The position numbers and the translations under genes were made by a program. From a virus (taxonomy: Duplodnaviria; Caudoviricetes), in the IMG/VR virus record IMGVR_UViG_2740892201_000001, positions 24,422-88,421 of that record: a stretch of DNA of 64,000 nucleotides. One strand, given 5' to 3'. Every line of letters starts with the position of its first letter. Positions within the stretch are counted from its first letter, which is position 1. The notes beneath the pieces were generated by a model, which saw only the letters and a program-made list of their open reading frames with translations, made no database searches and had not been told where the DNA came from. Shown piece by piece: positions 14,358 through 62,967 of the stretch.

Positions 14358-15998
14358 ATGAGTAACTTGCACGTAAACACCTTATGGCCGACTGACAATT
14401 CCTTGTCCGTTGATGTCAAAGACCTCGCTGGACGAATTAAGCGCAGTGTCAACGTTCTGACATATGGCGCCGACCCAACCGGCACATATGACAGCACTGC
14501 AGCTTTCAACCGCGCAGCTGCTGCTTCCGGTGGCGATCTCGTCGAAGTAAGCCCTGATGGCAATGGTAATGCCACTTATAAGGTGCTGAGCGCTACGAAT
14601 TCTGCTGTATGGTCAATTCACCCAGGCGTAACAATTACCGGTAAAAGCAATGCTGGTTCAGCAGGCGGTGGTGTGCCTGACTTTTCCAATCTTACTGGCC
14701 GGGCATTCAACATGTCCCCGGGCGGGCAAATGGGATTGCGTCTTGGCAGCACATCACCATGGCTGACGGCCAGCTTTCGTGACCCAATCGAGTATATTTC
14801 GGAAACTGTGTCAGTTGCCAAATCTGGCGGCTATGGCTTAGTAGGCGCAAGCCGTGCAAGTGATGACCCGGCAGCCAACATGAATACGATCGGCGTCGGC
14901 GCATTCGGTTACAACGACTACGCGACAGCACCTAACCCTGTATGGGCATCGTATATGGAAGGGCGCAGGAACGCCGGGACGGGGCCGCTTTTCGGTCTTG
15001 AGATGGACTTTGTGAACCTGGGTACAGATTTCAAAGAGACGACCGTCAACACCATCGACCCGTACAGTGCAAATTCGCCAGTGATTGGCCTTCGCCTAAG
15101 TGCTGGCGGCGGCGTTGGTGGGAATCCTTGCTCAACAGGCATGGACTTCAGTCCAAACGGAACAACGTGGAATAATGGCATTATGTTCCGCGCTGGCAGC
15201 CTGACTGATGGCAAAGCCATCGGTATGCCTGCCGACTATGCAATTAACTATTACGACGCCACTGGTGCGATCATCGGCGTACGCAATGGCTATGGCAGCT
15301 TCCTGACAGACATCGGTGACGCCAACACAACCTGCGTGACCGACCAGGTTATCCGAAACCGAACCACTGGCAAGACGGCGGATGGAGATTATCTTTATCT
15401 TCTGCAGGCGCGCTATTACCCTGCAAGTGCGTCGGCAATCTCTAACCAGCTGGTCTTCAAGCAGGTCTCCACTTATCGCACCTCTGCAATCCTGACTGCT
15501 AACAACGATACAGCTGTAGCGGTAGGCATCGCGATCAATGAGTTTTCCAACAACAGCGTTGCGCCAAACATTGATGCGTCCCTTTCACTCGGTACAGCGG
15601 CTTATCGGTGGGGGCAGATTTACTCATCCACATCGACTATCAGCACATCGGACGGGAATCTGAAAACTGATATTCGCGACCTGACGGATGTGGAAAAGCG
15701 TGTTGCTTCAAAAGTAAAAGGCCTGATAAAGATGTTCCGCTTTAAGGAAGACAAGGAACAGAAAGGTGAGGACGCCCGAATTCATACCGGCGTAATTGCT
15801 CAGGATGTTATCGCAGCGTTTGAAGGGGAAGGTCTTGATCCTTTCCGGTATGGCATCGTTTGTCTGGATAAGTGGGATGCTATTCCAGAGCAAAGAGACG
15901 ACAAGACCGGAAAGGTAATCAGAGAGGCGAAGGCCGCAGGCGAGCGCTACGGCATTCGTTATGAAGAGCTGATGTGCTTTGTTATTTGCTCGATCTGA
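14358..15998 (+). CDS. Tailspike / receptor-binding protein with C-terminal S74 intramolecular chaperone
   Basis: NVLTYGADPTG.YDSTAAF spike head; TSDGNLKTDI...H.GVIAQDV...YGIRYEEL chaperone. Confidence 0.85.
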   Translation: MSNLHVNTLWPTDNSLSVDVKDLAGRIKRSVNVLTYGADPTGTYDSTAAFNRAAAASGGDLVEVSPDGNGNATYKVLSATNSAVWSIHPGVTITGKSNAGSAGGGVPDFSNLTGRAFNMSPGGQMGLRLGSTSPWLTASFRDPIEYISETVSVAKSGGYGLVGASRASDDPAANMNTIGVGAFGYNDYATAPNPVWASYMEGRRNAGTGPLFGLEMDFVNLGTDFKETTVNTIDPYSANSPVIGLRLSAGGGVGGNPCSTGMDFSPNGTTWNNGIMFRAGSLTDGKAIGMPADYAINYYDATGAIIGVRNGYGSFLTDIGDANTTCVTDQVIRNRTTGKTADGDYLYLLQARYYPASASAISNQLVFKQVSTYRTSAILTANNDTAVAVGIAINEFSNNSVAPNIDASLSLGTAAYRWGQIYSSTSTISTSDGNLKTDIRDLTDVEKRVASKVKGLIKMFRFKEDKEQKGEDARIHTGVIAQDVIAAFEGEGLDPFRYGIVCLDKWDAIPEQRDDKTGKVIREAKAAGERYGIRYEELMCFVICSI

Positions 15999-17250
15999 TA
16001 TCTGGGGAGGCACTGCCTCCCTTTCTATGCAAAATCTCGTTATGCACAGCGCTACATAATGCTATTACAGCGCATATGTGAAGCAAGTATGCAACCCGAA
16101 AATATGAAGCATAAACTGTTGGTGAGAAGCCGATCATTACTACACTGGCCATCCCGCAAGAAATAGCTATTAGCGGAACGGTAGTTCTGTCCAGCCCTCT
16201 AATCAGCAGTGCAGAATTGAACATAATGCATACAGAATAAATCATTGTAAACAACATGTTAGCCCATCCAGAAAGAGATGAGAATTTTTCAGGCCACGGA
16301 TAGAGCAAATCAGGGGAAAGCCAATTAAAGAAAAATCTTGAGAGTCCATGACCAGATAGACTCGTAATCAAAGATAATACCATGTATGTAAATATGACAA
16401 AGCATGAAGCTAAGTGGAGGAATCCTAGTTTCCTGCCCCTGTTTAAATAAATCAGAACTGCAGACAGGCAAAATATTGGTATGTTATATGGCATGCTGTA
16501 AGTGCTGCCAAGCCGGTCAATTCCAAACATAACTTTGGTCAGGATGCTGTATTCTCCGAATCCAGGCATCCATGTAGCTGATTCAGCTGCAAATCGCAAT
16601 GAGTTCCCAGGAGCACTGAACATTATAAGAGAGCATATTGCCAGAACCGATATGTAAATAATTGAATACCAAGAGGGTCTTACTTTTTTCAAAACCAGCA
16701 TCAAGATTGATATTAGCAAAAGAAAAATCGCTGACTGCTCAGAAAAAGATGCGATTAATAATGCTAGTATTGAAAGTGTGGAGTTAATCACTCCTCTCTT
16801 CATGCTGGAGAAAACGCTAAGTGAATATATTGCAAGAGAAAAAGGTATAATATAATTATAGGCGCCAGTTACCCAAAAAAAAGAATCTTCATTGATCATT
16901 CTTGGTGTTAGCAACAAAATCACTGCAGCAGCTATAGTGGTATAAAACCCTACACTATTAGTTGCGAGCTTACTTATAGAGCAAACTAAAACAATGAAAG
17001 ATGTCGGAATGATAATTTTCCAAAAGGTTTCAATTCCTATTGTAGCAGTCAGTAACCCCTCTAAAGTTACTCGTCCGCTCCATGTGTCATATCTATATAA
17101 AAGGAAATCTACCAACCCCCTTGATTCAAGCGCTTTTGAGAAAAACACATCATCATTAGCACCCCTGAGAGAAAGATGCTGGAACATAATCGCGTAGAAA
17201 ATGCAGGCCATTGCAATGACACATAGTAACTTTATTTTACTTGCATTCAT
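15982..17250 (-). CDS. GtrC-like polytopic membrane glycosyltransferase (serotype conversion)
   Basis: Low GC, many hydrophobic segments, NDD..F...RY..WSGR motif; last gene of the gtrAB operon. Confidence 0.75.
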   Translation of the reverse strand: MNASKIKLLCVIAMACIFYAIMFQHLSLRGANDDVFFSKALESRGLVDFLLYRYDTWSGRVTLEGLLTATIGIETFWKIIIPTSFIVLVCSISKLATNSVGFYTTIAAAVILLLTPRMINEDSFFWVTGAYNYIIPFSLAIYSLSVFSSMKRGVINSTLSILALLIASFSEQSAIFLLLISILMLVLKKVRPSWYSIIYISVLAICSLIMFSAPGNSLRFAAESATWMPGFGEYSILTKVMFGIDRLGSTYSMPYNIPIFCLSAVLIYLNRGRKLGFLHLASCFVIFTYMVLSLITSLSGHGLSRFFFNWLSPDLLYPWPEKFSSLSGWANMLFTMIYSVCIMFNSALLIRGLDRTTVPLIAISCGMASVVMIGFSPTVYASYFRVAYLLHICAVIALCSAVHNEILHRKGGSASPDIRSSK

Positions 17251-17683
17251 ACCTGATCCCTCTTGCCTTGACTTTATCTTCATTGATAATCACAGCTATC
17301 TCTCCAGAAAGGCCGCCCAGAAGGCTTATGTTCCTGATTGATGCTTCAAATCCCGATCTGTCATAAACAGAATTGACCTTAAAAAACCTGCTAACATCAG
17401 GCCTGCTCACAATAGAGGATTTTACAACGACCCACTCATCAGATTTATTTTTTCTCGCATATATGACAGCATGATTGTTAGGGTGCTCAGGATTTAAAGC
17501 CCATCCTTTTACCGTCATGAATTTTTCGTTAAAATAGCAGCTATCAATTGATGTGAAATCTTTATTGTCATCAAAGCTTGGAACTTCTACCGTTTTGTAA
17601 CTGTTCCAAGATAGAAATAATAGCGACGATACCATCACGCAGGCTGAAATTAAAAGGGCAAAAGAAATTTTCAGAGCATTCAT
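17237..17683 (-). CDS. Membrane-anchored periplasmic beta-sandwich protein within the gtr operon
   Basis: N-terminal TM segment; V.GWA...RPDV...SGF motif; overlaps gtrB and gtrC. Confidence 0.7.
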
Positions 17684-18600
17684 TTTTCGTCCCTCTTTAT
17701 AACATACCGGGGTCTTTGTTTCGTCTCGACATAGATTCTTCCGATATACTCGCCAAGAACTCCAATGCCTATGAGTTGCACCCCGCCAAGAAACAGAATA
17801 GATACCAGAATCGAAGGATAACCAGCGACGGGATTCCCCCAGATCAGCTTGTCAGCAATCATCCACACGCCATAAAGAAAAGACAGGGCGGCAACGAAAA
17901 ATCCGATATAGGTCCACATGCGCAGTGGGAAAGTTGAGAAAGAGGTTATCCCCTCTAAGGCCAGGTTCCAAAGTTTCCAGCCATTGAATTTTGTGCTGCC
18001 TGCAACGCGTTCTGCACGGGCATATTCAACGATATCGGTTTTTCCGCCAACCCATGACAGAATTCCCTTCATAAAAAGGTTTCGCTCAGGCAAAAGCTTG
18101 ATGCTCTCAACCACATCGCGTGACATCAGGCGGAAGTCGCCAACGTTCTCTTCAATTTTTGGCGAGCTAATTTTGTTGTGCAGCCTGTAGAACCACTCCG
18201 CAGTCTTGCGCTTCATGTGTCCATCAGTGCTTCTGTCAATCCGCTTAGCCAGGACCATATCGGCCCCTGCCTGCCAGCGCTCAATCAGCTTAGGTATGAC
18301 TTCCAGCGGGTCCTGCAAATCAACGTCAATTGGGATAATGGCATCACCAGTGGCATTTTCGATTCCTGCAAATAGAGCTGCTTCCTTGCCGAAGTTTCTT
18401 GTAAAGAATACGTTTCGGACCAGTGGATCTTCCTCCTGCATATCCTTCATCAGCTGCGCCGTGAAATCGGTGCTGCCGTCATCTACGAAGACAATTTCTA
18501 TTTCATATGGCTTCAGGAATTCTTTATGTCTGACTGCGCTGTAAAAGAACCTTATTGCGTCTTCTTCATTGTAGACAGGAACGACTAACGAAATTTTCAT
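17680..18600 (-). CDS. gtrB: Bactoprenol glucosyltransferase
   Basis: [13 protein letters not shown]...DDGSTD...RNFGKEAAL...DVDLQDP; two C-terminal TM segments. Confidence 0.95.
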
Positions 18601-18956
18601 TGTTTCTCTCTAAATATTACATATTTCGAATAAAGGAAGCCGCATACAAGACTGATCCCCGAGAATAACACTAACGTTACGATCGGATTTATTTTCAGTT
18701 TATCGCCATATCCACCTACGAGCGTAGCAACCATGCCCATAAAGAATACGTACATCATGTATCGAAAGGTTGTGGCCTCAGCGCTGAAAGTCCATCTAGC
18801 GTTAGCGAAAAAGGAAAACGTGACAGCAACGCAGAATGCGATGAAATTTGACAGAGATTGGGTTTGTCCGTTCTTGATGCAGATAGCAAACACGACCCAA
18901 TGAATCAGCGTGTTGAGAACTCCAATCGTCATGTAGCGGGCAAATAATTTAGCCAT
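18597..18956 (-). CDS. gtrA: Bactoprenol-linked glucose flippase
   Basis: [20 protein letters not shown]...[16 protein letters not shown]; 119 aa. Confidence 0.95.
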
Positions 18957-19037
18957 GTTGACACCTGAAAATTTTGATACGGGATTTTGTCATTGAGATA
19001 GGTGATGATCAAGGAATCGATCATTTGCGTGAGGCAA

Positions 19038-19102
19038 TAAAAAAGCCCGGCGACCGGGCAATGACTCAACCGCGCCTCTCTGAGCAGGCTACGGGGTGGG
19101 TT
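19038..19102 (-). ncRNA. Putative sRNA unit A1 (sigmaS-like promoter)
   Basis: CTACCCT -10 at 19108-19114; terminator GCCCGG-TCG-CCGGGC-T6; homolog at 60652 with compensatory changes. Confidence 0.65.
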
Positions 19103-19146
19103 TTGTCAGGGTAGGTCATCATCACAACAGGAGCCAGGCGGGAGGC

Positions 19147-19300
19147 AAAAAATTACCCACCCCCGAGGCGGGTGGCGGGCATAATTTGTGGTGGAGCCAG
19201 TGACACTCTTTTGAGGCATCTCATGATTGTGACGAGGTTTAAGGCGAGCCAGCCATGCGCCTCTTCAGCCAGCGGTAGGAGCGCGGGCCTGTACACAACA
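19147..19300 (-). ncRNA. Putative ~150-nt sRNA unit B1
   Basis: TTGTAA-16-TACCAT promoter (19328-19333, 19306-19311); GC hairpin plus U tract; 100 bp identical to 61131-61230. Confidence 0.55.
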
Positions 19301-19364
19301 GTCATATGGTAGGGGGCTGAGCTGGTATTACAAGCGTAAGCGGTAACTAATTTGGGGGATGCGC

Positions 19365-19431
19365 AAAAAAAAGCCCACCAGAGGCGGGCAACCATAAATT
19401 TATCAACACATATCAGTGAGGAGAACCTCAC
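19365..19431 (-). ncRNA. Putative sigma28-dependent sRNA unit C1
   Basis: TAAAGTTT-N11-GGCGATAC (19463-19437); 5' hairpin GUGAGG/CCUCAC; AU-rich linker; terminator with U8. Confidence 0.7.
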
Positions 19432-19512
19432 AGCAAGTATCGCCAACCCGAAGAAAAACTTTAGCCTTACGTCTCGTTTTTAATGGTTATCTACTCACCG
19501 ATTTCAGAGCGC

Positions 19513-19583
19513 AAAAAAGCCCGCGTTACGCAGGCATCAATTGGGACAAAAAGGAAAAATCTCAGTATCAGCATCCGCTGACA
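19513..19583 (-). ncRNA. Putative sRNA unit D1
   Basis: TATGGT -10 at 19589-19594; 5' hairpin UGUCAGC/GCUGAUA; pyrimidine-rich linker; terminator; near-identical copy at 61607. Confidence 0.6.
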
Positions 19584-19771
19584 GTCGCACCATACAGGGT
19601 TCCGGGCCAATAGATAGTGATGAATCTGGCAATAGCGAAACGTGAGCAAGTTATGTATTTTCGTCATGCAAAACTATGCAGCGCTCGGGCTATAGAGCAT
19701 AAATTCAGCACCAGCTGCAGCTTTACAATTTTGCTACTCGCTTCGCCTTGATCAAATCCACCGATCGATAT

Positions 19772-19791
19772 TACTGTTTATTCATACAGTA
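19772..19791 (+). promoter_or_regulatory. LexA (SOS) box
   Basis: TACTGTTTATTCATACAGTA = CTG-N10-CAG, downstream of TTGATC -35. Confidence 0.85.
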
Positions 19792-19812
19792 TTTATCAGA
19801 GGAGGATTACTG

Positions 19813-20052
19813 ATGGCGCGAGACTACGAGATAAAGCCTGCATTCGTACAGGCGATCACATTGGACCGACTAGGGCGTCAGATAGTGACGACCAGCGCAT
19901 TCCAGGCGAAGCTGGAGGCCGTAAACCATCACTGGACGCTGCAGCAGTGCAACCAGTGGATACGACGCGAACAGAATATGTTCATGGAGCTGGCGACAGA
20001 AAACGGTGACAACCGCACCTACGCCCTGCGTAATATGGGATATGTGAGGTAG
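19813..20052 (+). CDS. SOS-regulated small protein (function unknown)
   Basis: GGAGGA RBS; 79 aa; near-identical copy at 61908. Confidence 0.8.
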   Translation: MARDYEIKPAFVQAITLDRLGRQIVTTSAFQAKLEAVNHHWTLQQCNQWIRREQNMFMELATENGDNRTYALRNMGYVR

Positions 20053-20054
20053 TC

Positions 20055-20377
20055 ATGGGATTTCAGTCACCGGCGCAGGATTACGTCGAGAGCCGTCTCG
20101 ATCTCAACAGGCTGTTTGCACCTCACCCAAACCACATGCTCCGGATAGAGACGCCAGGCGGATTCGCTCTGATAGACCGATCGCTTCAGGCGAAGCCGGG
20201 CGACACGGTCGCATTCCAGTTCGACGATTACCCGCAACTGGGGAAACTATTCAGCACAGGCATCATCACTCAGGATGGAGAGACGTTAGAAGGGAATGGG
20301 CTTGAGGGGGTCGTGGTGCTTGGGAAGGTGACTGCCGAGGTTCTGACTCTATACGAGCCTTACCGACCGACAATCTG
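20055..20377 (+). CDS. UmuD'-like (HumD-type) protein lacking the protease motif
   Basis: Starts MGFQSPAQDYVE like cleaved UmuD'; no GDSM catalytic motif. Confidence 0.75.
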
Positions 20378-20389
20378 AGGCGAAAGGGG

Positions 20390-21562
20390 CTATGCCCCTT
20401 TACCATCCAGCCAGTCAGCCCAATGTTGCATCATCTCAATACGGTTATTAAGATACTGGGCATGGTTATAAATTCCTCGCGTACCTTGCGAGTTCACGTG
20501 CGCCAGCTGGGCCTCAATAGCATCACTGTTCCAGTGAAGTTCGTTCATGACGGTGCTGAACTGGTGACGGAATCCGTGCCCACTGGTTTGCCCCTCATAT
20601 CCAATCCTTCTTATCACACCGAGCACGGTATTCTCGCTGATAGGCTTCTTCTGGTCAGTACGGCCCGGGAAGCAGAGCAGGTACTGGCCGGTGACCTTTT
20701 TCAGGAAAGTCAGCAGTTCGACTACCTGATCAGACATAGGCACTATGTGTATACGCCGACCCTTCATTACTTCGGCGTCAATCGTGATAAGTCTATTTTC
20801 AAAGTCGACGTTCGCCCATGCCATCGAGCGTAACTCTTTTGTACGCAGAGCGGTGTAGTGAAGAACCTGCGCCGCAATCTTTGCAATCACGCTTCCACCA
20901 TACCCTTCAAGCGCCCTGTGGAACTCCCGTATACGGTTAATTGGAAGGAAAGGGTAGTTCTCCTTTCTGTATCCTCGCAGGGCATCGACAAGGTCTGGCG
21001 CGGGGTTGTACTTAGCTCGCCCGGTTACGATCGCATACCGGAAAACCTCGCCACACCTCCTCCTGGCCTTATCCGCTCTCTCCATCGCGCCACGTTCTTC
21101 GAAAAGCCTGATGACCTTCAGCAGAACCATTGGCTCAACCTCTTCCATTTTCAGGTGACCGATGATCGGCAAAATGTCGTCTGTGAACATCCGGTGTAGC
21201 TCATCCGCATAACCCGGGGACCAGACTTTAGACTTGTGGGCATACCATTCCCCGAAGATATCGCCAAAGGTGTCAGCATTAGCCTCTTTCTCTTTCTTCT
21301 TCAGCGACTGCTTCTGCTCGGCAGGATCAACGCCAGCAAGCAGCTTCATCTTGGCCTCAGACTGGCGGGCCCGGGCTTCTGTAAGCGATATCTCAGGATA
21401 GGGCCCAATTACTAGCGTCTTTTCTTTCCCGTCAAACCGGTAACGCAGCCGCCAGACCTTTTTGCCGGTAGGGGGAACGAAAAGGAACAGACCGCCAGAA
21501 TCGGCCAGGCGATATGACTTTTCCTTAGGGCGTGCAGCATCAATCTGCTTGACGGTCAGCAT
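20390..21562 (-). CDS. int: Tyrosine integrase, P4/IntS-like (prophage 1)
   Basis: MLTVKQIDAA.PKEK.YRL.D.GGL arm-binding domain; catalytic LRT.E, HGFR, LAH, Y residues. Confidence 0.93.
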   Translation of the reverse strand: MLTVKQIDAARPKEKSYRLADSGGLFLFVPPTGKKVWRLRYRFDGKEKTLVIGPYPEISLTEARARQSEAKMKLLAGVDPAEQKQSLKKKEKEANADTFGDIFGEWYAHKSKVWSPGYADELHRMFTDDILPIIGHLKMEEVEPMVLLKVIRLFEERGAMERADKARRRCGEVFRYAIVTGRAKYNPAPDLVDALRGYRKENYPFLPINRIREFHRALEGYGGSVIAKIAAQVLHYTALRTKELRSMAWANVDFENRLITIDAEVMKGRRIHIVPMSDQVVELLTFLKKVTGQYLLCFPGRTDQKKPISENTVLGVIRRIGYEGQTSGHGFRHQFSTVMNELHWNSDAIEAQLAHVNSQGTRGIYNHAQYLNNRIEMMQHWADWLDGKGA

Positions 21563-21725
21563 GTGGGCATAATTCCGGGCATAGTTTTTGGTGTGCCCAC
21601 AATATGCCCGCAAAAAGTCGGCGTAGTCAATTCATGTCGGTTCGCGTCGGTTGTATATGATTTGCGGTAAAGGGTGTTTCTGAAGGGGTTTTGTTCGTGT
21701 CGGTGGAGGCGGGTTCTGTAGAATG

Positions 21726-21800
21726 TGGTGTCCCCTGCAGGAATCGAACCTGCAACTAGCCCTTAGGAGGGGCTCGTTATATCCATTTAACTAAGGGGAC
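21726..21800 (-). tRNA. argW: tRNA-Arg(CCT), argW-like
   Basis: Reverse complement GTCCCCTTAGTTAAATGGATATAACGAGCCCCTCCTAAGGGCTAGTTGCAGGTTCGATTCCTGCAGGGGACACCA; 75 nt, CCT anticodon, encoded CCA. Confidence 0.97.
21777..21800 (+). repeat. att core of prophage 2 (copy in the intact tRNA)
   Basis: TTATATCCATTTAACTAAGGGGAC, exactly repeated at 63756-63779. Confidence 0.92.
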
Positions 21801-21940
21801 TTCGTTTGCGGAAGTTTTGAAGTTGTTCCGACGGTTCGCATCCTATCGTAAAACCTCAGATTTTTACAAGCCTTGCATTCTACTTTGTTTCGCTCGGTTT
21901 CCCTTACTTCTCCTTTAACATCGCCTCGTTCACTTGCCAA

Positions 21941-21983
21941 TGAGTACACATTGAGTACAGAATGCCTTTAGGAATTGTGTACA
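21941..21983 (+). repeat. Probable integrase arm-binding sites
   Basis: TGAGTACA x2 and TGTGTACA; matching TGCGTACA/TGAGTACA at 63677-63696 near the other att. Confidence 0.65.
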
Positions 21984-21993
21984 GGACATCATT

Positions 21994-23163
21994 GTGGCGC
22001 TGAGTGATACCAAATTAAGAAGCATCAATGGCAAAGCTTACAACGGACCAGCGGAACTAACCGATGGTGACGGGCTGAGCGTTCGCATCACTCCATCTGG
22101 CACGATTACATTTCAGCACCGCTACCGCTGGAATGGAAAGCCTGTGCGTCTCACTGTCGGTCGCTACCCTTCAACATCGCTGAAAGATGCCCGCATTGCC
22201 GTAGGTGAGATGCGTGGATTGTACACGAAGGGGGTTAACCCAAAAACCTATTTTGCCGGAAGCACTGGTGTACTGACTCTTAAGGAGTGCCTGGATAACT
22301 GGTGGGAAAAATATGTTAAAGACCTAAAGCACAATACACAGGTGCTGTACAAATCAGTTGTGTACAACACCATGTACAACGAATTCGAAGATGTGCCTGT
22401 TGCCAACATCCCTGTATCAGCCTGGGTCCAGTTCTTTGATAAACAGGAAAACCTGAATAAGAAGAAAGCCCGCGTTCTGTTGCTTCAACTCCGCTCAGTC
22501 ATTCACTGGTGCATCAGCCGGCAGCTGATACCTTCATGTGAGATCACAAAACTGAGCGTCAAAAATATTGGCAAGAAGCCAGACGTTGGTGATCGAGTTC
22601 TGACCTATAGCGAGTTAGCAAAAATATGGGTGGCGCTTGAGAACAGCAAGATCGTCACTTCCAACAGGTTGCTTCATCAGATGCTATTGCTGTGGGGCGC
22701 TCGCTTGTCTGAGCTTCGCCTGGCTAACGCTGCTGAGTTTAATACCACCGATTGGATATGGACCACACCATCCGAACATTCAAAGATGGGCAACATCATC
22801 AGGCGTCCTATCTTTGAGCAAATGAAGCCCATGGTGGAGCGCCTGCTAAATAGCGGGAATAAGGTTTTGTTTCCGGGGCAAGAACTCGACAAAGCTATTG
22901 ATCGCTCTTCATCGAATTTGTACATGCGGAAACTGAGAGAGGCTATTGATATTCCTGAATGGCGCACCCACGACTTCCGCCGTTCATTGGTGACTAACTT
23001 ATCAAGTGAGGGAGTCATGCCCCATGTCACTGAGAAAATGCTGGGGCATGAACTTGGTGGTGTCATGGCTGTGTACAACAAACACGACTGGCTGGAAGAT
23101 CAAAGAAAGGCATATGAGTTGTATGCAGATAAAATATTCTGGCACGTCAAACAGCTCGGTTAA
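21994..23163 (+). CDS. int: Tyrosine integrase (prophage 2)
   Basis: DGDGLSVRI arm domain; GAR.SE, HDFRRS, LGH and YN catalytic motifs. Confidence 0.93.
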   Translation: MALSDTKLRSINGKAYNGPAELTDGDGLSVRITPSGTITFQHRYRWNGKPVRLTVGRYPSTSLKDARIAVGEMRGLYTKGVNPKTYFAGSTGVLTLKECLDNWWEKYVKDLKHNTQVLYKSVVYNTMYNEFEDVPVANIPVSAWVQFFDKQENLNKKKARVLLLQLRSVIHWCISRQLIPSCEITKLSVKNIGKKPDVGDRVLTYSELAKIWVALENSKIVTSNRLLHQMLLLWGARLSELRLANAAEFNTTDWIWTTPSEHSKMGNIIRRPIFEQMKPMVERLLNSGNKVLFPGQELDKAIDRSSSNLYMRKLREAIDIPEWRTHDFRRSLVTNLSSEGVMPHVTEKMLGHELGGVMAVYNKHDWLEDQRKAYELYADKIFWHVKQLG

Positions 23164-35090: not shown

Positions 35091-35232
35091 GTAAACATCC
35101 CTGCAAGGGATGGTGAAAAGATTATCCACACTGAGGGATAGAAAAATTAACCCTGTTGCCGACGGGCAAGGCAGTTACCGCTTTAGCGTCAGGGTTTCTA
35201 AATGCCCGACTCTGCACTAAGATGACTTCACT

Positions 35233-35332
35233 GCGGTGAATCCCATCTAAGCGATGGGGCGTGATGGCAAATGTTATGCGGAACGCGAGCCTGAAGCCAT
35301 AACAGGGCTCACCGGGAGGCACCCGGCACCGC
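35233..35332 (+). ncRNA. Structured RNA element (sRNA-Xcc1-like motif), late leader
   Basis: GCGGTGAAT...CACCGGGAGGCACCCGGCACCGC; 25 nt identical to the copy at 26267-26291. Confidence 0.55.
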
Positions 35333-35484
35333 AGACCATCCAATTTTCTAAATTCAAAGGCTCACTTCGGTGGGCCTTTTCGTTTTTGCGCACGCCAATC
35401 AGCCTCCACACACATTTTGACGCCGTGGCGTTGCGCAATTTCCTTCTGACTACCGACAGCACCTGCCAATTAACGGAGGTGAGG

Positions 35485-48995: not shown

Positions 48996-51900
48996 ATGGC
49001 AACGCTGCGCGAGCTCATTATTAAAATTTCCGCGAACTCCAGTTCATTTCAGTCTGAGATTTCGCGCGCCTCCCGCATGGGGGCTGATTACTATAAAACG
49101 ATGGAGCAGGGCGGGCGGAAGGCTGCAGCGGCCACGCGGGAAACCCAGCGTTCTTTGTCTGACCTGAACTCCGAGCTGGCTACGGTAAAATCATCTGCAG
49201 CCGGGTTAGCGGGGGCGTGGGCTGGCGCGTTCGCAACGCATCAGCTTATTGAGTTTGCTGACACATGGAACCAGATGAATGGTCGCCTTAAGCTGGCCTC
49301 CACCTCTGCCGACGACTTCTCAACAGCCCAGCGCACACTGATGGAAATCAGCCAGCGTACCGGCACGTCACTGGAAGCTAACTCGGGCTTATACAGCCGT
49401 ATCGCTCAGTCACTCCGCGCGGCGGGTTATGCATCATCTGACGTGGCGAAAGTCACTGAAACAGTCGCAACATCGCTGAAGCTATCCGGAGCCAGCACAG
49501 AAGAAGCGAGCTCAGTTATCACGCAGCTCAGCCAGGCGCTGGGTTCAGGTGTACTGCGCGGCGAAGAGTTTAACGCCATCATGGAAAGCGGTGGACGCCT
49601 GGCAAAACTTCTTGCTGATGGTCTGGGTGTGACCGTTGGTGGCCTGCGAAACATGGCCAACAACGGCGAACTGACCACAGATAAAATCCTGCCGCTTCTG
49701 ACCAATGTTGAAATCCTGCGAAAGGAATTTGAGAGCCTTCCTGCTTCCGTGAGTGGATCGGCTCAGAAGGTCCAGAACGCCTTTCTGGCATGGGTGGGGG
49801 GTGCCGACAGTGCTGTTGGCGCATCTTCCTCGCTTGCTGGCGTGCTGGACGGCCTGGCTAGAAATATCGATACGGTAGCTAACACGGCTGGCGTGCTGGT
49901 CAGCGTCGGTCTGGCGCGTTATTTCGGCAACATGGTTGGCAGCGTTGCCCAGTCAACTGCGGCGGTGGTGTCGAATACTGCCGCTGAGGTAGGGCTGGCA
50001 CAGGCTCAGGTTCGTGGCGCTCAGGTCAGTGTGGCAGCAGCACGCCAGACGGTTTACCGGGCTCAGCAGGCCAGAGCAGCCGCCGTCTCGATTGAGGCAC
50101 AGATTGTCGCCGAACGTGCGCTGACAGCTGCGCAGTCCGGGCTTAACAGTGCCATCGCGGGCAGAACATCTGCCATCAGCAACCTGACCAATACTGCCTC
50201 TGTAATGTCGCGGCTTGGCGGCGGTGTGCTGAGTGTTCTGGGCGGCTGGCCGGGTGTGATTATCGGTGCCGGTGCTGCTATGTTCGGCTTGTACCAGCAC
50301 ACTCAGCAGGTTCACAAAGAGGCGGTAAGCTTCGCCAACAATCTCGATGAGATCAACAGCAAGCTTAAGCAGATGTCTGTGCTGGGCCTGAAGTCTACCG
50401 CTGCTGATGCCCGTACATCTCTTCAGGCGCAGAAGCAGGATTTGAATGACCTCGATACGCAGATCGCAAAAGTTAGAGACAGCCTGAGTGGCCTGGACCA
50501 GATTCAGCAGGATTACAACAGGCACCCCACGCTGACCTATATCAACACGTTCATGGATCAGGCCGACATCACGGCTAAGAATGTGGAGCTCACCGATAAG
50601 CTAAACCGGCTGGAGTATCAGCGAGAGCAGGCTGCAGCAAAAGTCGCCAGCACGCAAAAGCTGGTCAATGATGCGAGCGATCTTGCAACGCAGAAGGCCG
50701 TTGAGCAGGCTGGCGCTGTTTCGATTCTGAAGGGTGCCTATGATCTCCTGAACCGCTCAATGTCCGCCACTGCCGGGGCGAAACCGCCTCAGTATGCAGG
50801 TCCGGTTGTGAACGTTGCCAGCGCCACTCCGCAGCAGCAGACAGCGCTTGAAAAGGCCCGTCGCGATAACGAGCTTTCCAGCCTCAGCGGTTTGCAGAAG
50901 CTGCACGCGCAGCATCAGTACGAAGCTGATGACCTGAAACTGACCGGCGCACTCTATACCCAGTACGTTTACAACAAAGATCAGGCTGCAAAAAAAGATG
51001 CAGCCGCTGCAGAGGCAAAGAAAACCGGCACGGCCGCAACAAATGCACAGAACAAAGCTGAGCGGGAAGCCGCAACACAGGCTGAAAACTATGCCCGTAA
51101 AATGGCTGACCTCAGCGTTGCCATAGAGGTTCAGAAGGTTCGCGCCACCGAAGGTGAAAAAGCATCAGAGTTGTATGCCGCATCGCATCAGGCTGGCACC
51201 AAGTGGACAGAAGAGCAGCGCAAAGCCATTCGCGACAACTCATCTGAGTTAGCCATATGGACACAACGGGCTGAGGCGAATGTAAAAAAACAGCGTGAGC
51301 AGGCTGAGGCGCTGAAGGATTTAACCGAAGCAGCGCGGAAATATCGCGATGATGCCACCCAGACCACGGCGACAGCGGGCCTCAGTGACCGTCAGCGCAG
51401 CCGTTATGAAGAAACGCAGCAGGTGGATCGCGTTTTCGATAAAACGGACAAAGGCGCGGCGGCGATTGCGGCGCGTCAGCAGGCTCTCGGCGATCTGGAC
51501 AGGAAATACCAGGCCATAGCCGCAACAGAGGCAGACTGGCTTAGCGGGGCGTCGAAGGGATATCAGAACTGGCTTGAAAGCGCCAGTAATGTGTCCGGGG
51601 CCGTTGCCTCCGGCGTGATCTCTACTCTCGACAGCGCAATGGATAACATGTCTTCCATGCTGGCAGGCAGTAAAGCAGACTGGAAAAGCTGGGGCCTTTC
51701 GATCCTGCAGACCATCGCAAAAATTGCGCTTCAGATGGCTGTCGTCAATACGCTGAAAGCTTCTTCTTCATCATGGGGAAGTATTCTGGGCTCAGTTGCC
51801 AGCAGTGTCGGCGGCGCTGTTGCAGGCGGTGCTGCAGGCGGCTCGACCGGATCAACCGGCGCAATGGGGCTGTCAACCAGCTACAGCGCCTATGACAGTG

Positions 51901-52280
51901 GTGGTTTTACCGGTGCAGGCGGTAAATATGATCCGGCCGGCATTGTGCATAAAGGGGAATTCGTCTTCACCAAAGAGGCAACAGACCGCATCGGTGTGTC
52001 AAACCTCTATTCACTGATGAAAGGCTATGCGGATGGCGGGGTTGTATCACCCGGGGCCGCTGTTTATTCCTCCGGTGTTAACCGCGCTTCCGGCAACGGG
52101 AATACGGTTTTTAACATCAGCGCCCCGGTCACCATAAGTCAGGGAGGGGCGGCGGGTGAAACCTCTGCCAGCGGTACGGCAGACACGGCCAGACAGCTTA
52201 AATCTATTGTCGAAATGACGCTAACAGAGCGGCTCAGGAAGGAGATTTCTCCGGGCGGACTGCTGTACCGGACTTCGTGA
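48996..52280 (+). CDS. Tape measure protein
   Basis: 1094 aa Ala-rich; QLSQAL.SGVLRGEEFN; GG.TG.GGKY.PAGIVHKGEFV. Confidence 0.95.
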   Translation: MATLRELIIKISANSSSFQSEISRASRMGADYYKTMEQGGRKAAAATRETQRSLSDLNSELATVKSSAAGLAGAWAGAFATHQLIEFADTWNQMNGRLKLASTSADDFSTAQRTLMEISQRTGTSLEANSGLYSRIAQSLRAAGYASSDVAKVTETVATSLKLSGASTEEASSVITQLSQALGSGVLRGEEFNAIMESGGRLAKLLADGLGVTVGGLRNMANNGELTTDKILPLLTNVEILRKEFESLPASVSGSAQKVQNAFLAWVGGADSAVGASSSLAGVLDGLARNIDTVANTAGVLVSVGLARYFGNMVGSVAQSTAAVVSNTAAEVGLAQAQVRGAQVSVAAARQTVYRAQQARAAAVSIEAQIVAERALTAAQSGLNSAIAGRTSAISNLTNTASVMSRLGGGVLSVLGGWPGVIIGAGAAMFGLYQHTQQVHKEAVSFANNLDEINSKLKQMSVLGLKSTAADARTSLQAQKQDLNDLDTQIAKVRDSLSGLDQIQQDYNRHPTLTYINTFMDQADITAKNVELTDKLNRLEYQREQAAAKVASTQKLVNDASDLATQKAVEQAGAVSILKGAYDLLNRSMSATAGAKPPQYAGPVVNVASATPQQQTALEKARRDNELSSLSGLQKLHAQHQYEADDLKLTGALYTQYVYNKDQAAKKDAAAAEAKKTGTAATNAQNKAEREAATQAENYARKMADLSVAIEVQKVRATEGEKASELYAASHQAGTKWTEEQRKAIRDNSSELAIWTQRAEANVKKQREQAEALKDLTEAARKYRDDATQTTATAGLSDRQRSRYEETQQVDRVFDKTDKGAAAIAARQQALGDLDRKYQAIAATEADWLSGASKGYQNWLESASNVSGAVASGVISTLDSAMDNMSSMLAGSKADWKSWGLSILQTIAKIALQMAVVNTLKASSSSWGSILGSVASSVGGAVAGGAAGGSTGSTGAMGLSTSYSAYDSGGFTGAGGKYDPAGIVHKGEFVFTKEATDRIGVSNLYSLMKGYADGGVVSPGAAVYSSGVNRASGNGNTVFNISAPVTISQGGAAGETSASGTADTARQLKSIVEMTLTERLRKEISPGGLLYRTS

Positions 52281-59381: not shown

Positions 59382-60653
59382 ATGCCAGCAGGCACTATCG
59401 CATTAACGAATAACTCAACGGCTGTGACAGGCTCAGGAACATCATTTACAGCTGAGCTTAAAGCGAACGACTTCATCGTTGCTATAGTAGGTGGTGTCAC
59501 CTATACGCTCGGAGTGCAGTCGGTGAACTCGGCTACCGGCGTGACACTGACTACAGCATATAACGGCCCGACCGCATCAGGTATTGCGTGGACAGCTGTA
59601 CCTAATGCGGCCCTTGTCGGGATTACTGCGCAGGTAGCGGCTGATGTAGCCAGGGCTATTCGCGGGCTTAATCTTGATAAAGCTAACTGGCAGCAGATTT
59701 TCAGCGGCACCGGAAACGTGACAGTAACGCTTCCAGACGGCAGCCAGTACACAGGTCCGGCATGGGGTGGCTTAATTAAGCGAGATGGCTCTGTTGCCAT
59801 GACAGCTGCACTGACAACGCCAGCAATTGAGCTGACAGCTGCAACCCCCTTTATAGATTTTCATTATAACAATTCGACAGCCGATTATACGGCAAGGATC
59901 ATTCATACCGAAGCGCAGGCGATTGAAGTTAGCGCTGGTTCAGGAAATATATCTTTTCGCATCAATGGCGGTTTACGCGTCGGTGGTGCGTCTTATTCAG
60001 GAGGCATTAACTTATATCGAGGTAATGGCGATGCGAATGCGTTGTGGGGGTTAAACGCTTCAGATGGAAATCTAAATATTGCCAGGGGGACATCGACCGG
60101 AGGCATTATAACGATGGCTGATAGCATGCTGGATCAAGTGCGAGGGATAAGAGGAAAACAAGGTGCTTCCGGAGTTTATCAACCTAATACCTGGCAGTTT
60201 TACTGGAATTCTTCAGCCCAGCTTGAGGCATGGGTGGATACCAGTAAGGTCGGTAACGTTACGCTATCAAGTACATCAGATAAAGGGCTGAAGAAAGATA
60301 TCACCTACCGTGAAGACGCGAGTGAGGCTCTTGCGGAAGTTCTTAAGTGGCGCCCAGCTGATTTTAAAATGAAGGCTCGTGGCATTATTCCGGAGACAGC
60401 AGAACAGTTGGGTTTCATTGCTAATGACCTGGTTAAGGTATCTCCTGAATGTGTCAGCGGGAAAGGATTGCCGGATGATTATGATATTGAGGCCGATCCC
60501 AATAACGACACGGCATATTACCTTAACCACATCCCGATGATTGCTAAGCTGGCTCAGGCGCTACAGGCCCAGCAGAAAATCATCGACGCACAGTCCGAGA
60601 TTATTAAGGCAATGGGAGTCCGGTTGAAAGATCTTGACGGCTTGGATGGATAA
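59382..60653 (+). CDS. Side tail fiber with C-terminal S74 chaperone
   Basis: GTI.LTNNS..V.GSGT.F; P.IDFH....ADY..RI; TSD..LKK.I...GFIA.DL. Confidence 0.88.
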   Translation: MPAGTIALTNNSTAVTGSGTSFTAELKANDFIVAIVGGVTYTLGVQSVNSATGVTLTTAYNGPTASGIAWTAVPNAALVGITAQVAADVARAIRGLNLDKANWQQIFSGTGNVTVTLPDGSQYTGPAWGGLIKRDGSVAMTAALTTPAIELTAATPFIDFHYNNSTADYTARIIHTEAQAIEVSAGSGNISFRINGGLRVGGASYSGGINLYRGNGDANALWGLNASDGNLNIARGTSTGGIITMADSMLDQVRGIRGKQGASGVYQPNTWQFYWNSSAQLEAWVDTSKVGNVTLSSTSDKGLKKDITYREDASEALAEVLKWRPADFKMKARGIIPETAEQLGFIANDLVKVSPECVSGKGLPDDYDIEADPNNDTAYYLNHIPMIAKLAQALQAQQKIIDAQSEIIKAMGVRLKDLDGLDG

Positions 60654-60716
60654 AAAAGCCCGGCGACCGGGCAAGGTATGTTCCGCTCTCGTCTCAGCGA
60701 GTTTACGGGGTGGGTA
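60652..60716 (-). ncRNA. Putative sRNA unit A2 (sigmaS-like promoter)
   Basis: CTACGCT -10 at 60722-60728; same 5' ACCCACCCCGUA and terminator as A1. Confidence 0.65.
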
Positions 60717-60760
60717 TTGTCAGCGTAGGTTACTGTTTCAGCCAGAGCCAAGCGGCGGGC

Positions 60761-60839
60761 AAAAAAAGCCCGCAAAGCGCGGGCATAAAATTCGAGCGTT
60801 AGAAACTTCTTGTACGCAACACAGCTGCTGTGTGTTACC
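60761..60839 (-). ncRNA. Putative sRNA unit E2
   Basis: TATCAT -10 at 60845-60850; 5' hairpin GUAACACA/UGUGUUGC; terminator GCCCGC..GCGGGC-U7. Confidence 0.55.
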
Positions 60840-60922
60840 CATATATGATAACCCATAGTAATTATTTGTTTGTTAAGAAAGCGTAAATCCTATCAATAGG
60901 TGGAACTAACCTTTCGGGAAGC

Positions 60923-60999
60923 AAAAAAAACCGCTGTCCGGAACAGGGCAGCGGGAAAGGTGTACCCAGCTATTATTATGGTACCAGGGTAGATACCAG
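60923..60999 (-). ncRNA. Putative sRNA unit F2
   Basis: TATAAT -10 at 61005-61010; 5' hairpin, AUAAUAAUA tract, CCUUUCCC, terminator with U8. Confidence 0.6.
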
Positions 61000-61072
61000 C
61001 GGCAATTATATGCCATAAGTCAGATCACGCCTGTTTTTTTAACAAATAATTTACAGCAATAACATTGACCTG

Positions 61073-61226
61073 AAAAAAATGCCTGCCCCCGAGGCGGGTG
61101 GCAGGCATAAGTCGTGGTTGGGCTATTGATACTCTTTTGAGGCATCTCATGATTGTGACGAGGTTTAAGGCGAGCCAGCCATGCGCCTCTTCAGCCAGCG
61201 GTAGGAGCGCGGGCCTGTACACAACA
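61073..61226 (-). ncRNA. Putative ~150-nt sRNA unit B2
   Basis: TTGTCA-16-TACCAT promoter; homolog of B1; terminator with U7. Confidence 0.55.
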
Positions 61227-61290
61227 GTCACATGGTAGGGGAGTGAGCTAGTATGACAAGCGTAAGCGGGAAGTATTTTCAGGAGTTCAG

Positions 61291-61365
61291 AAAAATAAGC
61301 CCGCGTCAAGCGGGCTGACTCAAGCAGGGGTCACCAATAATCAGAGTTGAGAGCACTACTCTCAA
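61291..61365 (-). ncRNA. Putative sigma28-dependent sRNA unit G2
   Basis: TAAAGAAC-N11-ACCGATAC (61397-61371); 5' hairpin UUGAGAG/CUCUCAA; terminator AGCCCGC/GCGGGCU. Confidence 0.7.
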
Positions 61366-61445
61366 AAATGGTATCGGTCAGCCGGCCAGGTTCTTTAGGG
61401 TTGATTTCATCAGAGGGGGGGTTAACCGAACAGCACCGCGTGTGC

Positions 61446-61526
61446 AAAAAAAAGCCCGCATCTCACGGGCAAGTAACAGCGTATGTCTTTTGTTTTCTCA
61501 CTTCAGGTGAGGAGCTAAGCTCCACC
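61446..61526 (-). ncRNA. Putative sigma28-dependent sRNA unit H2
   Basis: TAAAGGTT-N11-GCCGTTAA (61557-61531); 5' hairpin; A-rich linker; terminator with U8. Confidence 0.7.
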
Positions 61527-61606
61527 ATTGTTAACGGCTCATTGTCGAAAACCTTTAGTAAAGTCAGCACTATTTTGAATAACCGAAGCGCTCAAAGCTT
61601 AAAGCC

Positions 61607-61678
61607 AAAAAAGCCCGCGTTACGCAGGCATCAATTGGTACAAAAAAGGAAAAATCTCAGTATCAGCATTCGCTGACA
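61607..61678 (-). ncRNA. Putative sRNA unit D2
   Basis: Near-identical to D1; TATGGT -10 at 61684-61689. Confidence 0.6.
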
Positions 61679-61866
61679 GGCGCACCATACAGTGTTCCTG
61701 GCCATTAGATAGTGATGAATATGGCAATAGTGAAACATGAGCACGTTATGTATGTTCGCCATGCAAAACTATGCAGCGCCCGGGCTATAGAGCATAAATT
61801 CAGCACCATCCGCAGCTTTACAATTTTGCTACTCGTTTCGCCTTGATCAAATCCACTGTTCGATAT

Positions 61867-61886
61867 TACTGTTTATCCATACAGTA
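61867..61886 (+). promoter_or_regulatory. LexA (SOS) box
   Basis: TACTGTTTATCCATACAGTA. Confidence 0.85.
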
Positions 61887-61907
61887 TTCATCGGAGGAGG
61901 ATTACTG

Positions 61908-62147
61908 ATGGCGCGAGACTACGAGATAAAGCCTGCATTCGTACAGGCGATAACGCTGGACCGGCTGGGGCGGCAGATAGTAACAACCAGCGCATTTCAG
62001 GCGAAGCTGGAGGCCGCAAACCATCACTGGACGCTGCATCAGTGCAACCAGTGGATACGTCGCGAACAGAATATGTTCATGGAACTGGCGACAGAGAACG
62101 GTGACAACCGCACCTACGCCCTGCGTAATATGGGATATGTGAGGTAG
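61908..62147 (+). CDS. SOS-regulated small protein, second copy
   Basis: Differs from 19813-20052 at only 2 aa, with several synonymous changes. Confidence 0.8.
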   Translation: MARDYEIKPAFVQAITLDRLGRQIVTTSAFQAKLEAANHHWTLHQCNQWIRREQNMFMELATENGDNRTYALRNMGYVR

Positions 62148-62149
62148 TC

Positions 62150-62473
62150 ATGGGATTTCAGTCACCGGCGCAGGATTACGTCGAGAGCCGTCTCGACCTC
62201 AACAGGCTGTTTGCTCCTCACCCGGACCATATGATCCGCATAGAAACGCCAGGTGGATTCGCTCTTATCGACCGATCGCTGCAGGCTCGCCCGGGCGACA
62301 CGGTCGCATTCCAGTTCGACGACTATCCGCAGCTGGGTAAATTGTTCAGTACGGGCATCATCACTCAGGATGGTGAGACGTTAGAAGGGAATGCGCTGGA
62401 GGGGATCGTGGTGTTGGGAAAGGTGACGACTGAGTTTGAATCGGCCTATGAAACTTACAGTGCCATTATTTGA
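62150..62473 (+). CDS. UmuD'-like protein, second copy
   Basis: MGFQSPAQDYVE start; diverges from the first copy in the last ~12 aa. Confidence 0.75.
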   Translation: MGFQSPAQDYVESRLDLNRLFAPHPDHMIRIETPGGFALIDRSLQARPGDTVAFQFDDYPQLGKLFSTGIITQDGETLEGNALEGIVVLGKVTTEFESAYETYSAII

Positions 62474-62574: not shown

Positions 62575-62967
62575 CTACGTAAACATTTCGAGAGTAGGAA
62601 GCGTGAAGGGTGGGTGTGGTGACATATGAACTACTCTCACTACACCAAATTCATGGCGTGTGTAATGAAGCACGAACATGGAAGTTCTATCTCCAAATTT
62701 CGACTCCTCATCATAATGATGAATACCAATATGGTAATGCCACAAGCAGTGTTTGTTGACAAACCTAGCTTTGCTAACAAATTCAGGATCGTCATGGTCA
62801 ATGTCGTCTGAAAATTTGTTTCTTCCTTCAAGCCCGTCATAGCCATTCTTCATAAGATGCAGGATAAACGCACTTATTTTACGGCGATTTTTAGGAGGGA
62901 AACCCTGATAACGGGTCTTGAAGTGGTTAGTCAGCTTAGCGTCAACAACTACAGGCTCATGATCCAT
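62575..62967 (-). CDS. Putative RelE/YafO-like toxin
   Basis: 130 aa; F...Y..F....RKI..FI N-terminus; LWHYHIG and HPPF motifs; overlaps the upstream 81-aa ORF. Confidence 0.5.
   Translation of the reverse strand: MDHEPVVVDAKLTNHFKTRYQGFPPKNRRKISAFILHLMKNGYDGLEGRNKFSDDIDHDDPEFVSKARFVNKHCLWHYHIGIHHYDEESKFGDRTSMFVLHYTRHEFGVVRVVHMSPHPPFTLPTLEMFT

Follow-up and report, generated by a model that had tools for sequence, protein, structure and literature searches.

We analyzed a 64,000-nucleotide stretch of DNA (the window; positions 24,422 to 88,421 of the IMG/VR record IMGVR_UViG_2740892201_000001), which lies within an 88-kb provirus record and whose genes have relatives in Pantoea genomes. The region of interest, at 19038-19740, is an array of short minus-strand units next to an operon with a LexA-box (SOS) promoter; a second array stands at 60651-61835. 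Our main finding is that the region is probably a stack of self-contained small RNA (sRNA) genes, each with its own predicted promoter, RNA and intrinsic terminator. We designate them 'sRNA morons', a moron being an independent transcription unit inserted between genes that are adjacent in related phages. As judged from the sequences, the stack occupies a site in temperate Pantoea phages, where the late region ends, that is a hot spot for the insertion of morons. The cassettes measure 110-215 bp and their predicted RNAs 60-155 nt.

Each array sits between late or gtr genes and its operon, and all cassettes point away from the operon, toward the tail-fibre or gtr genes. The first array comprises four minus-strand units, A1, B1, C1 and D1, with a terminator at the end of each, and together with the adjoining linker and operon is composed as follows:

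19038-19146, minus: unit A1, predicted RNA of ~64 nt (~19101 to 19038), terminator hairpin at 19045-19059
19137-19132 (-35, CTGGCT) and 19113-19108 (-10, TACCCT), minus: predicted A1 promoter
19147-19364, minus: unit B1, predicted structured RNA of ~155 nt (~19302 to 19147)
19333-19328 (-35, TTGTAA) and 19311-19306 (-10, TACCAT), minus: predicted B1 promoter, with conserved CCGCTTACGC upstream
19365-19511, minus: unit C1, predicted RNA of ~66 nt (~19430 to 19365), terminator at 19373-19389
19463-19456 (TAAAGTTT), N11, 19444-19437 (GGCGATAC), minus: predicted sigma28-type promoter of C1
19512-19656, minus: core of unit D1, predicted RNA of ~93 nt (~19604 to 19512), terminator at 19519-19535
19616-19611, minus: candidate -10 of D1, TATCTA
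19657-19740: linker between the D core and the operon promoter, common to both window loci and to the related loci L051 and L023
19772-19791, plus: perfect LexA box, TACTGT-N8-ACAGTA, 21 nt before the start of the next gene
19813-20052, plus: gene for a 79-amino-acid (aa) protein of unknown function (phrog_3893, E 1e-26)
20055-20378, plus: gene for a UmuD'-like protein of 107 aa (phrog_3469 'UmuD-like', E 2.7e-22)

The second array holds seven minus-strand units, A2, E2, F2, B2, G2, H2 and D2, followed by a second copy of the operon:

60651-60760, minus: unit A2, terminator at 60658-60672, abutting the tail-fibre stop codon at 60651-60653
60761-60925, minus: unit E2, terminator at 60768-60784
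60926-61075, minus: unit F2, -10 TATAAT at 61010-61005, predicted RNA of ~73 nt, terminator hairpin at 60931-60954 (+/- 3 nt)
61076-61290, minus: unit B2, -35 TTGTCA and -10 TACCAT within 61259-61232, RNA from ~61228 to 61073
61291-61445, minus: unit G2, weak sigma28-like TAAAGAAC-N11-ACCGATAC from 61397, predicted RNA of ~73 nt, terminator at 61298-61316
61446-61605, minus: unit H2, sigma28-type TAAAGGTT-N11-GCCGTTAA from 61557, predicted RNA of ~78 nt, terminator at 61454-61470
61606-61751, minus: core of unit D2, terminator at 61613-61629
61867-61886, plus: second perfect LexA box, likewise 21 nt before the operon start
61908-62473, plus: second operon copy (79-aa gene at 61908-62147, UmuD'-like gene at 62150-62473)

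Terminators are greatly over-represented in both arrays, and all array terminators lie on the minus strand, so that the units have the 3' terminator of their own expected of a moron. Six terminator-like sites were called in 18900-19900, against 0.9 +/- 0.9 in shuffles; two of the calls overlap at one hairpin and another lies inside the 79-aa gene, and the distinct array hairpins are at 19045-19059, 19155-19175, 19373-19389 and 19519-19535. In 60500-62000 there were seven such sites, against 1.6 +/- 1.3 in shuffles, five of them distinct within the array; the terminators of F2 and B2 seem present from folds only, having been missed by the site scan.

An earlier sequence-only reading of this DNA had proposed that A1, B1 and D1 match A2, B2 and D2 in the same order, and BLAST alignment of the two loci indeed yields three collinear blocks: A (19037-19152 versus 60650-60766, 76% identity), B (19147-19389 versus 61073-61315, 86%) and D with the region up to the operon (19512-19812 versus 61606-61907, 92.7%). 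As it had also stated, E and F are missing between A and B of the first locus, some 306 nt (E2 and F2) being present in the second locus only. The slot between B and D holds unrelated DNA: global identity of C1 to G2 or H2 is 57-58%, where shuffles give 49% with a maximum of 55%, and there is therefore no real homology. The sigma28-type promoter is strong in H2 and weak in G2, so that the earlier description of C1 as 'a different sigma28 unit' is apt. The extent given there, 19038-19600, is too short: the array ends at ~19740 and the mobile core of D1 spans 19512-19656. The linker is 94% identical between the window loci, and unit positions 183-229 are also joined to the promoter region in some minimal loci. 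Not everything held: the array had been thought to have moved as one block together with the SOS operon, whereas identities are mosaic, with 70-79% for A, 94% for the B body, 92.5% for D, 94% for the 79-aa gene and 85% for the UmuD'-like gene. This lends no support to one transfer of array and operon together, and argues for several exchanges.

Related loci, cited below by locus number, were compared to follow the units in other genomes. The scaffold consists of A, the LexA-box promoter, the 79-aa gene and the UmuD'-like gene. Among the 80 viral loci of clade 1 of the 79-aa gene, A lies directly beside the operon promoter in 60; the others comprise 11 loci with a longer slot, eight without an A match and one with A and no promoter match. 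The same minimal form is found in 21 of the 64 loci of clade 2. The units are thus present in some loci while their flanks are adjacent in relatives (60/80 and 21/64), as is typical of morons. Two of the 11 longer slots of clade 1 are non-coding stacks (L051, L087) and nine hold minus-strand protein genes. An automatic census by distance to the nearest open reading frame (ORF) of at least 90 codons was confounded by spurious ORFs within arrays and gives a rough distribution only, in which a single minus-strand terminator is the commonest count (90 of 144 loci). By eye, the slot holds a 60-aa lipoprotein-like ORF in L039 (~2030-1850) and an ORF of ~240-265 aa with a Bro-N or antirepressor look in L047 and L069. 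Genes upstream of arrays vary, and include gtrA, several families of tail-fibre and tail-fibre-assembly genes, and a methyltransferase gene.

Unit content differs from locus to locus. The order A-B-C-D of the first window locus recurs in L051, L222 and L223; L199 and L204 have A-E-F-B-C-D; L217 has A-B-H-D, and L215 has A-B-H up to the contig end. L196 shows A-B at a contig end, and L219 a truncated form. The six units of L087 are A-Y-X'-D-B-X, with B and D in the other order. Units resembling B, with further tandem terminators, also occur without the operon in other phage regions (L197, L198, L201, L202). Altogether, the A|B slot is empty or holds E-F, and between B and D stand C, G-H or H by itself, which gives four observed combinations; B and D are also found in reversed order (L087), alone, and outside this locus.

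The borders of exchange coincide with the borders of the units. In the window, the A/B and A/E breaks fall within the terminator A-run. In L217, a complete H2 (160/160) is flanked by B and D, both of them complete, while G is precisely absent, and the B|H crossover lies in TG(C/T)GC-A8-GCCC, common to the C1 and H2 ends. D starts at unit position 1 or 2 in all 11 other loci that hold it, and stops at 144-147 in four independent contexts. The sequence-only reading had seen homology breaks at terminator/promoter borders and taken the unit as the heritable module, with a conserved scaffold and variable slots; the four slot combinations, the coincidence of borders across independent contexts and the further variation and reordering in the collected arrays give this good support. 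In the alignments, cassettes are seen to be gained, lost and reordered one by one, and the breaks are located in the A-run of the terminator.

Unit B has a conserved predicted structure. An alignment of 11 copies from at least five contexts has an invariant CCGCTTACGCTTG, then a freely varying 16-nt spacer, TAnnnT, seven to nine variable bases and a conserved body. The -35 within CCGCTTACGCTTG is TTGTCA, with TTGTAA in B1 and TTGTTA or TTGCCA in other copies, and the pattern is, on its sequence, that expected of a sigma70-type promoter. Between the window loci, the body is 94% identical and the spacer upstream of it 53%. In the fold of the body, a closing helix is accompanied by three hairpins and the terminator; the 39 pairs are formed in 95.8% of 429 cells, compared to 37-44% with slid partners. 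Nine pairs change on both sides, a number reached by none of 500 shuffles, but the covariation rests largely on two subfamilies, whose relatedness inflates the shuffle control, which is therefore generous. No tRNA-like or tmRNA-like element was found by ARAGORN in the arrays, although one loop of B resembles an anticodon loop. A covariance model of B (R1) matched only B1 (177 bits) and B2 (183.8 bits) in the window. The exact B pattern was found in nine viral and 17 metagenome stretches, several of which are apparently the same contigs (equal lengths and match positions), and which supplied the loci L196-L199, L201, L202, L204, L215, L217, L219, L222 and L223; one genome-contig collection gave no match, and another genome collection has a B copy (in G446). 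Among Pantoea species genomes, full-length R1 matches were found in six of 75. Five of these six are distant, single relatives of B (L206-L210; 34-55 bits) that keep the closing helix; in the three alignments shown, the loop CUCCUAC is exact in one and has one change in each of the other two. One of these relatives adjoins a DNA-invertase-looking ORF and small ORFs taken by eye for tail-fibre genes. We thus regard B as a new structured RNA of ~155 nt and a candidate family.

Unit A was aligned in 36 sequences. Its -10 keeps the T, the A and the final T, the fifth position is a nearly invariant C and the middle two vary; CTAnnCT is kept among copies, with TTGGC (-35) 17-18 nt upstream, and the RNA then begins CCCACCCCG. 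The hairpin of eight pairs is 90.3% paired, compared to 30-62% with slid partners; it was drawn by hand, and counted in that form because the RNAalifold consensus was poor. A2 has an inner stem CUCG/CGAG in place of GCCU/AGGC of A1. The terminator of this unit, T_A, is present in nearly all loci. In L087 (2890-2830, minus strand), a 'minimal'-type copy of the A promoter, ending TAATCT, stands beside the operon and now reads into another unit, and A itself is at the far end with the 'expanded'-type promoter CCGCTTGGCTC; this remnant suggests that the stack was inserted at the start site of A.

In the alignment and consensus fold of unit D (12 sequences), the 5' stretch GGAACNCTGTATGGTG hardly varies; it is followed by a stem-loop, in which U-A is compensated by C-G, then by a spacer rich in U and by the terminator, a layout corresponding by analogy to the usual build of an Hfq-binding sRNA. 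Within the 5' stretch, the 9 nt ACTGTATGG also occur on the minus strand of the LexA operator. A D-like unit with 75-79% identity and the same 144-nt borders occurs in three Pantoea species (L026, L027 and L028, ~1501-1644), seemingly in a chromosomal, non-phage setting: it follows a 46-aa membrane ORF and lies between a 404-aa ORF with a GGEEF motif, by eye a diguanylate cyclase, and an ABC-permease-like gene.

Among the remaining units, C1 and H2 stand out for their promoters. Scored over the 16 positions of the sigma28 (FliA) consensus TAAAGTTT-N11-GCCGATAA, both reach 14 (8+6 for C1, 7+7 for H2), and they account for two of the four sites of at least 14/16 in the window, where 0.02 are found per shuffled window. 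They match the form of the E. coli FliA promoters printed for tar, tsr and flxA in PMC4183435. L087 has two further units, X and X', with 14/16 sites. The C promoter is kept in L051, L199 and the remnant in L023, with the C RNA body down to 74-87% identity (L051, L199); by our reading of the sequence, the 5' stem of C in L199 is GAGU/ACUC, compared to GAGG/CCUC. Copies of H2 with 91-94% identity lie between B and D in L217 and L215, a 77% copy of F2 in L199 keeps TATAAT and the 5' hairpin, and 90% copies of E2 are found in L199, L204 and L213. Promoter-like conservation is seen for A, B, C1, F2 and H2, and is weak for D and G2. The predicted RNAs of C1, F2, G2 and H2 share one plan, a 5' hairpin, 22-31 unpaired nt (27 in C1) and the terminator, with fold z-scores from -1.7 to -2.8 (C1 -2.83, F2 -2.22, G2 -2.21). 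A terminator with a U tail after an unpaired U- or A/U-rich stretch, characteristic of Hfq-type sRNAs, appears in the folds of C1, D1, F2, G2 and H2; B is more heavily structured than this plan. The other two 14/16 sites of the window lie outside the arrays. One, at 63650 on the minus strand (TAAAGTTT-N11-ACCGATAT), precedes an AT-rich run of small minus-strand ORFs ending with a 130-aa ORF at 62575-62967 (phrog_5954); the other, at 27410 on the minus strand, falls where a 237-aa ORF ends, within the early region of the second prophage.

Two prophages flank a tRNA-Arg(CCT) gene (21726-21800, the only one found by ARAGORN), and their two integrase genes, mutually divergent, lie on either side of it (20390-23163), one per prophage; by its sequence, a single tRNA gene is thus occupied doubly or in tandem. 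The left prophage encodes tail proteins, a major head protein and internal virion proteins of large size, and looks podovirus-like since no tape-measure gene was present among the ORFs examined. Its order is tailspike, gtrC, gtrB and gtrA (minus strand, 15982-18956), array, operon and integrase (20390-21613). The right prophage, with an integrase from 21994, encodes a tape measure (48996-52280) as well as a central tail fibre of the J type, and is therefore lambda-like; its right end carries a tail-fibre gene (59382-60653), then the second array and the second operon. It also has a match to STnc100 (RF02076) at 35205-35388 on the plus strand, with 87 bits for a gathering score of 47, so that a known sRNA is also carried by an array-bearing prophage. 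A preprint on Pas sRNAs (10.64898/2026.05.13.724894) relates STnc100 to PasD, an sRNA that it places near the Q antiterminator gene.

Perfect LexA boxes number two in the window, against 0.02 expected, and there is one per operon. The operon copies are 97% (79-aa protein) and 87% (UmuD'-like protein) identical in protein sequence, and 94% and 85% in nucleotide sequence. The 79-aa protein has no Pfam match. Aligned to solved structures, the UmuD'-like protein starts from residue 25 of the UmuD chain and from the first residue of UmuD', which we take to be the start of the cleaved form, and it has Ala where UmuD has the Ser of G-D-S-M, the UmuD nucleophile. It would therefore need no self-cleavage, and is probably incapable of it. 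In Escherichia phage SaltyDalty, a DinI gene follows the UmuD'-like gene.

Several observations weigh against reading the units as sRNA genes, in addition to the two-subfamily structure of B. Nothing reached the Rfam gathering threshold in either array or in nine related loci, and permissive thresholds gave nothing credible in the arrays, the best sub-threshold score being 24.4 bits for a gathering value of 60.8. Fold z-scores are unremarkable for A1 (-1.37), B (-0.55 to -0.73) and D (-0.83). The best promoter candidate of D, TTCGCT-N17-TATCTA, has a -10 ending in A instead of T, the sigma28 match of G2 (11/16) is near chance level, and no convincing promoter was identified for E2. Conserved unpaired stretches are present in the alignments of A, B and D. 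Among possible RNA targets, the neighbouring operon leaders alone were tested, and gave no support: duplexes of A with the leader of the 79-aa gene have z-scores from +1.1 to -1.2 relative to shuffles, and no target was identified. The pairing of D with the operon leader, with a best z-score of -1.3 and 10% of shuffles as good, was dropped as evidence. Units B to H are absent from 50,697 deposited phage records, in which A with the promoter region is found in Escherichia phage SaltyDalty only, while Pantoea phage AH07 has the promoter region; three matches came from 401 genomes sampled at family level, all to parts of A or the promoter.

The only hint of expression is weak: a metatranscriptome contig of 231 nt (depth 30.2) covers 19145-19372, that is, unit B, and one of its ends is 2 nt from the predicted 3' end of B. 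Such a contig cannot show the start, end, strand or level of a transcript, DNA may be present in RNA libraries, and branching of the assembly at a cassette border can likewise end a contig. In run X20, no contig lies on the rest of 17600-21700, and uncovered parts carry no evidential weight. In runs X17 and X18, contigs of relatives cover 19035-19856 and not gtr or int. Contigs of run X15, which is probably DNA, join 19101 to 19704 or 19742 and represent natural A-only variants.

It is conceivable that the arrays are the functionless debris of moron turnover, that is, 3' ends, terminators and promoters left over from deleted protein-coding morons. Decay products do exist, since the C promoter of L023 is fused straight to a terminator and D of L219 is truncated, and minus-strand protein genes with their own terminators occupy the same slot in nine of the 11 expanded clade 1 loci and in L039 and L047. 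We nevertheless consider this account unlikely: whole units recur intact, with the same borders, in unrelated contexts, promoter elements are kept while spacers vary, the B body is much better conserved between the window loci than the spacer upstream of it, stems change in a compensatory way, and no unit matched a coding gene in the loci examined. Similar arguments apply to a role in cis, to which we give a slightly smaller probability still. Convergent promoters, antisense RNAs and T_A would then shield the late or gtr genes from leftward transcription and damp read-through into the operon, by transcriptional interference or antisense cleavage, and the RNA sequences would matter little. Indeed, the arrays examined are all directed against the operon, and also against the tail-fibre genes in loci that have these upstream; T_A, besides being nearly ubiquitous, abuts the tail-fibre stop codon in the second locus, where no plus-strand terminator follows the tail-fibre gene. 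However, insulation would require no more than one terminator, conservation of RNA bodies and loops far exceeds that of spacers, B and D also occur singly where there is no such operon, and gtrABC upstream of the first array run in the same direction as the array.

It seems highly improbable that the units code for very small proteins or for toxin-antitoxin pairs of type I. No small ORF is conserved. Among ORFs of at least eight codons with a Shine-Dalgarno-like motif, the only one that both arrays have is a 29-codon plus-strand ORF with a GAGG motif inside B, present in both window loci; as we read the aligned B copies, L087 and L025 lack its start codon. The B and D bodies show indels of one base, and a 58-codon minus-strand ORF in D runs through the terminator, with mostly non-synonymous changes as we read them. 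Stacked sRNA genes are thus the reading that we retain. The proposal that the units are sRNAs, already made in the sequence-only reading, gains computational support for promoters, terminators and structure, but not for function.

Were the units sRNA genes, the lysogen would transcribe each of them independently, C1 and H2 following FliA and being transcribed together with the late flagellar genes, and A would be a divergent neighbour that accompanies the operon. C1, D, F2, G2 and H2 may act as Hfq-type base-pairing regulators of host or phage mRNAs, and B through its invariant loops CUCCUAC and GCUGGCUCGCC. Cassettes would be exchanged between co-infecting or co-resident phages by recombination in the GC-A(6-8)-GCCC common to unit ends. 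Extending this further, we tentatively picture a phage 'rack' of plug-in RNA cassettes, in which GC-A(6-8)-GCCC at terminator ends would serve as a universal crossover, podovirus-like and lambda-like phages would trade units, C1, H2 and X/X' would be wired to FliA and thus produced in motile hosts, and B would be a new family; we consider this broader picture as a whole somewhat less likely than not. Integrons likewise assemble cassettes combinatorially, but their cargo is protein, whereas in such a rack homology would reside at the terminators.

To our knowledge, prophage sRNAs have been described singly, chiefly in pathogenic E. coli and in Salmonella. PrrF1/F2 and Qrr are tandem sibling sRNAs, paralogues of one RNA; the arrays likewise have sRNA genes side by side, but their neighbours are unrelated, except X and X' in L087. 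IstR-1 is an sRNA transcribed divergently from a LexA-controlled gene, tisB, and unit A is similarly divergent from a LexA-box promoter, which it accompanies in most loci. Pairing of the IstR/tisB type was not found for A or D with the operon leader (duplex z-scores from +1.1 to -1.3 relative to shuffles), and by our reading of its sequence the 79-aa protein is unlike a small hydrophobic toxin of the TisB type. The flxA gene lies in a cryptic prophage, and the sigma28-dependent sRNAs derived from untranslated regions (UTRs) in E. coli reportedly come from core flagellar genes.

Such UTR-derived sRNAs are described in PMC10578931, and FliA-dependent non-coding RNAs of E. coli in PMC4183435, which lists flxA as FliA-dependent. 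C1 and H2 share the promoter form of the latter, but are free-standing phage cassettes and their FliA dependence is predicted. Prophage sRNAs at moron sites are already established: AsxR, AgvB and EcOnc are Hfq-binding sRNAs at moron insertion sites in lambdoid prophages of pathogenic E. coli (PMC4104026), Pas sRNAs and STnc100 are prophage-encoded (10.64898/2026.05.13.724894), and DicF and IsrK are further established prophage sRNAs. As far as these sources describe them, AsxR, AgvB, EcOnc and the Pas sRNAs resemble the arrays in being short terminator-ended RNAs of temperate phages, at sites that tolerate extra DNA, with related but non-identical versions whose copy number and presence vary by strain; they are located downstream of a Q-dependent late promoter, singly or as convergent pairs. 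Unlike that class, the arrays have up to seven unrelated units head to tail at the far end of the late region, with unit-wise reassortment. They also have no sequence or Rfam relation to it, the STnc100 copy of the window being elsewhere. With respect to the moron concept (Juhala et al. 2000, as cited in PMC4104026), array units are moron-like in their predicted promoter and terminator, their presence or absence at one position and the slot shared with protein-coding morons. They differ from usual morons in that their cargo is non-coding and stacked, and in that their borders reuse the terminator as a crossover site. We found no description in the literature of unrelated sRNA cassettes stacked in one orientation next to a LexA operon, nor of their unit-wise reassortment. 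The arrays are real, and would be a new form of an established kind of element, the prophage-encoded sRNA.

This study adds three or more candidate RNA families that Rfam does not contain, namely A, B and D, of which B has covariation support. The LexA-box operon behind the tail-fibre genes offers an easy landmark for a site where sRNA genes are collected and exchanged in phages of a plant-associated genus. Should the units be expressed, intrinsic terminators would have a second role as sites of recombination, FliA-type promoters would let a prophage sense the flagellar programme of its host, and lysogenic conversion would take place at the RNA level and in a combinatorial manner. Phages could in this way hand differing sets of regulatory RNAs to their hosts.

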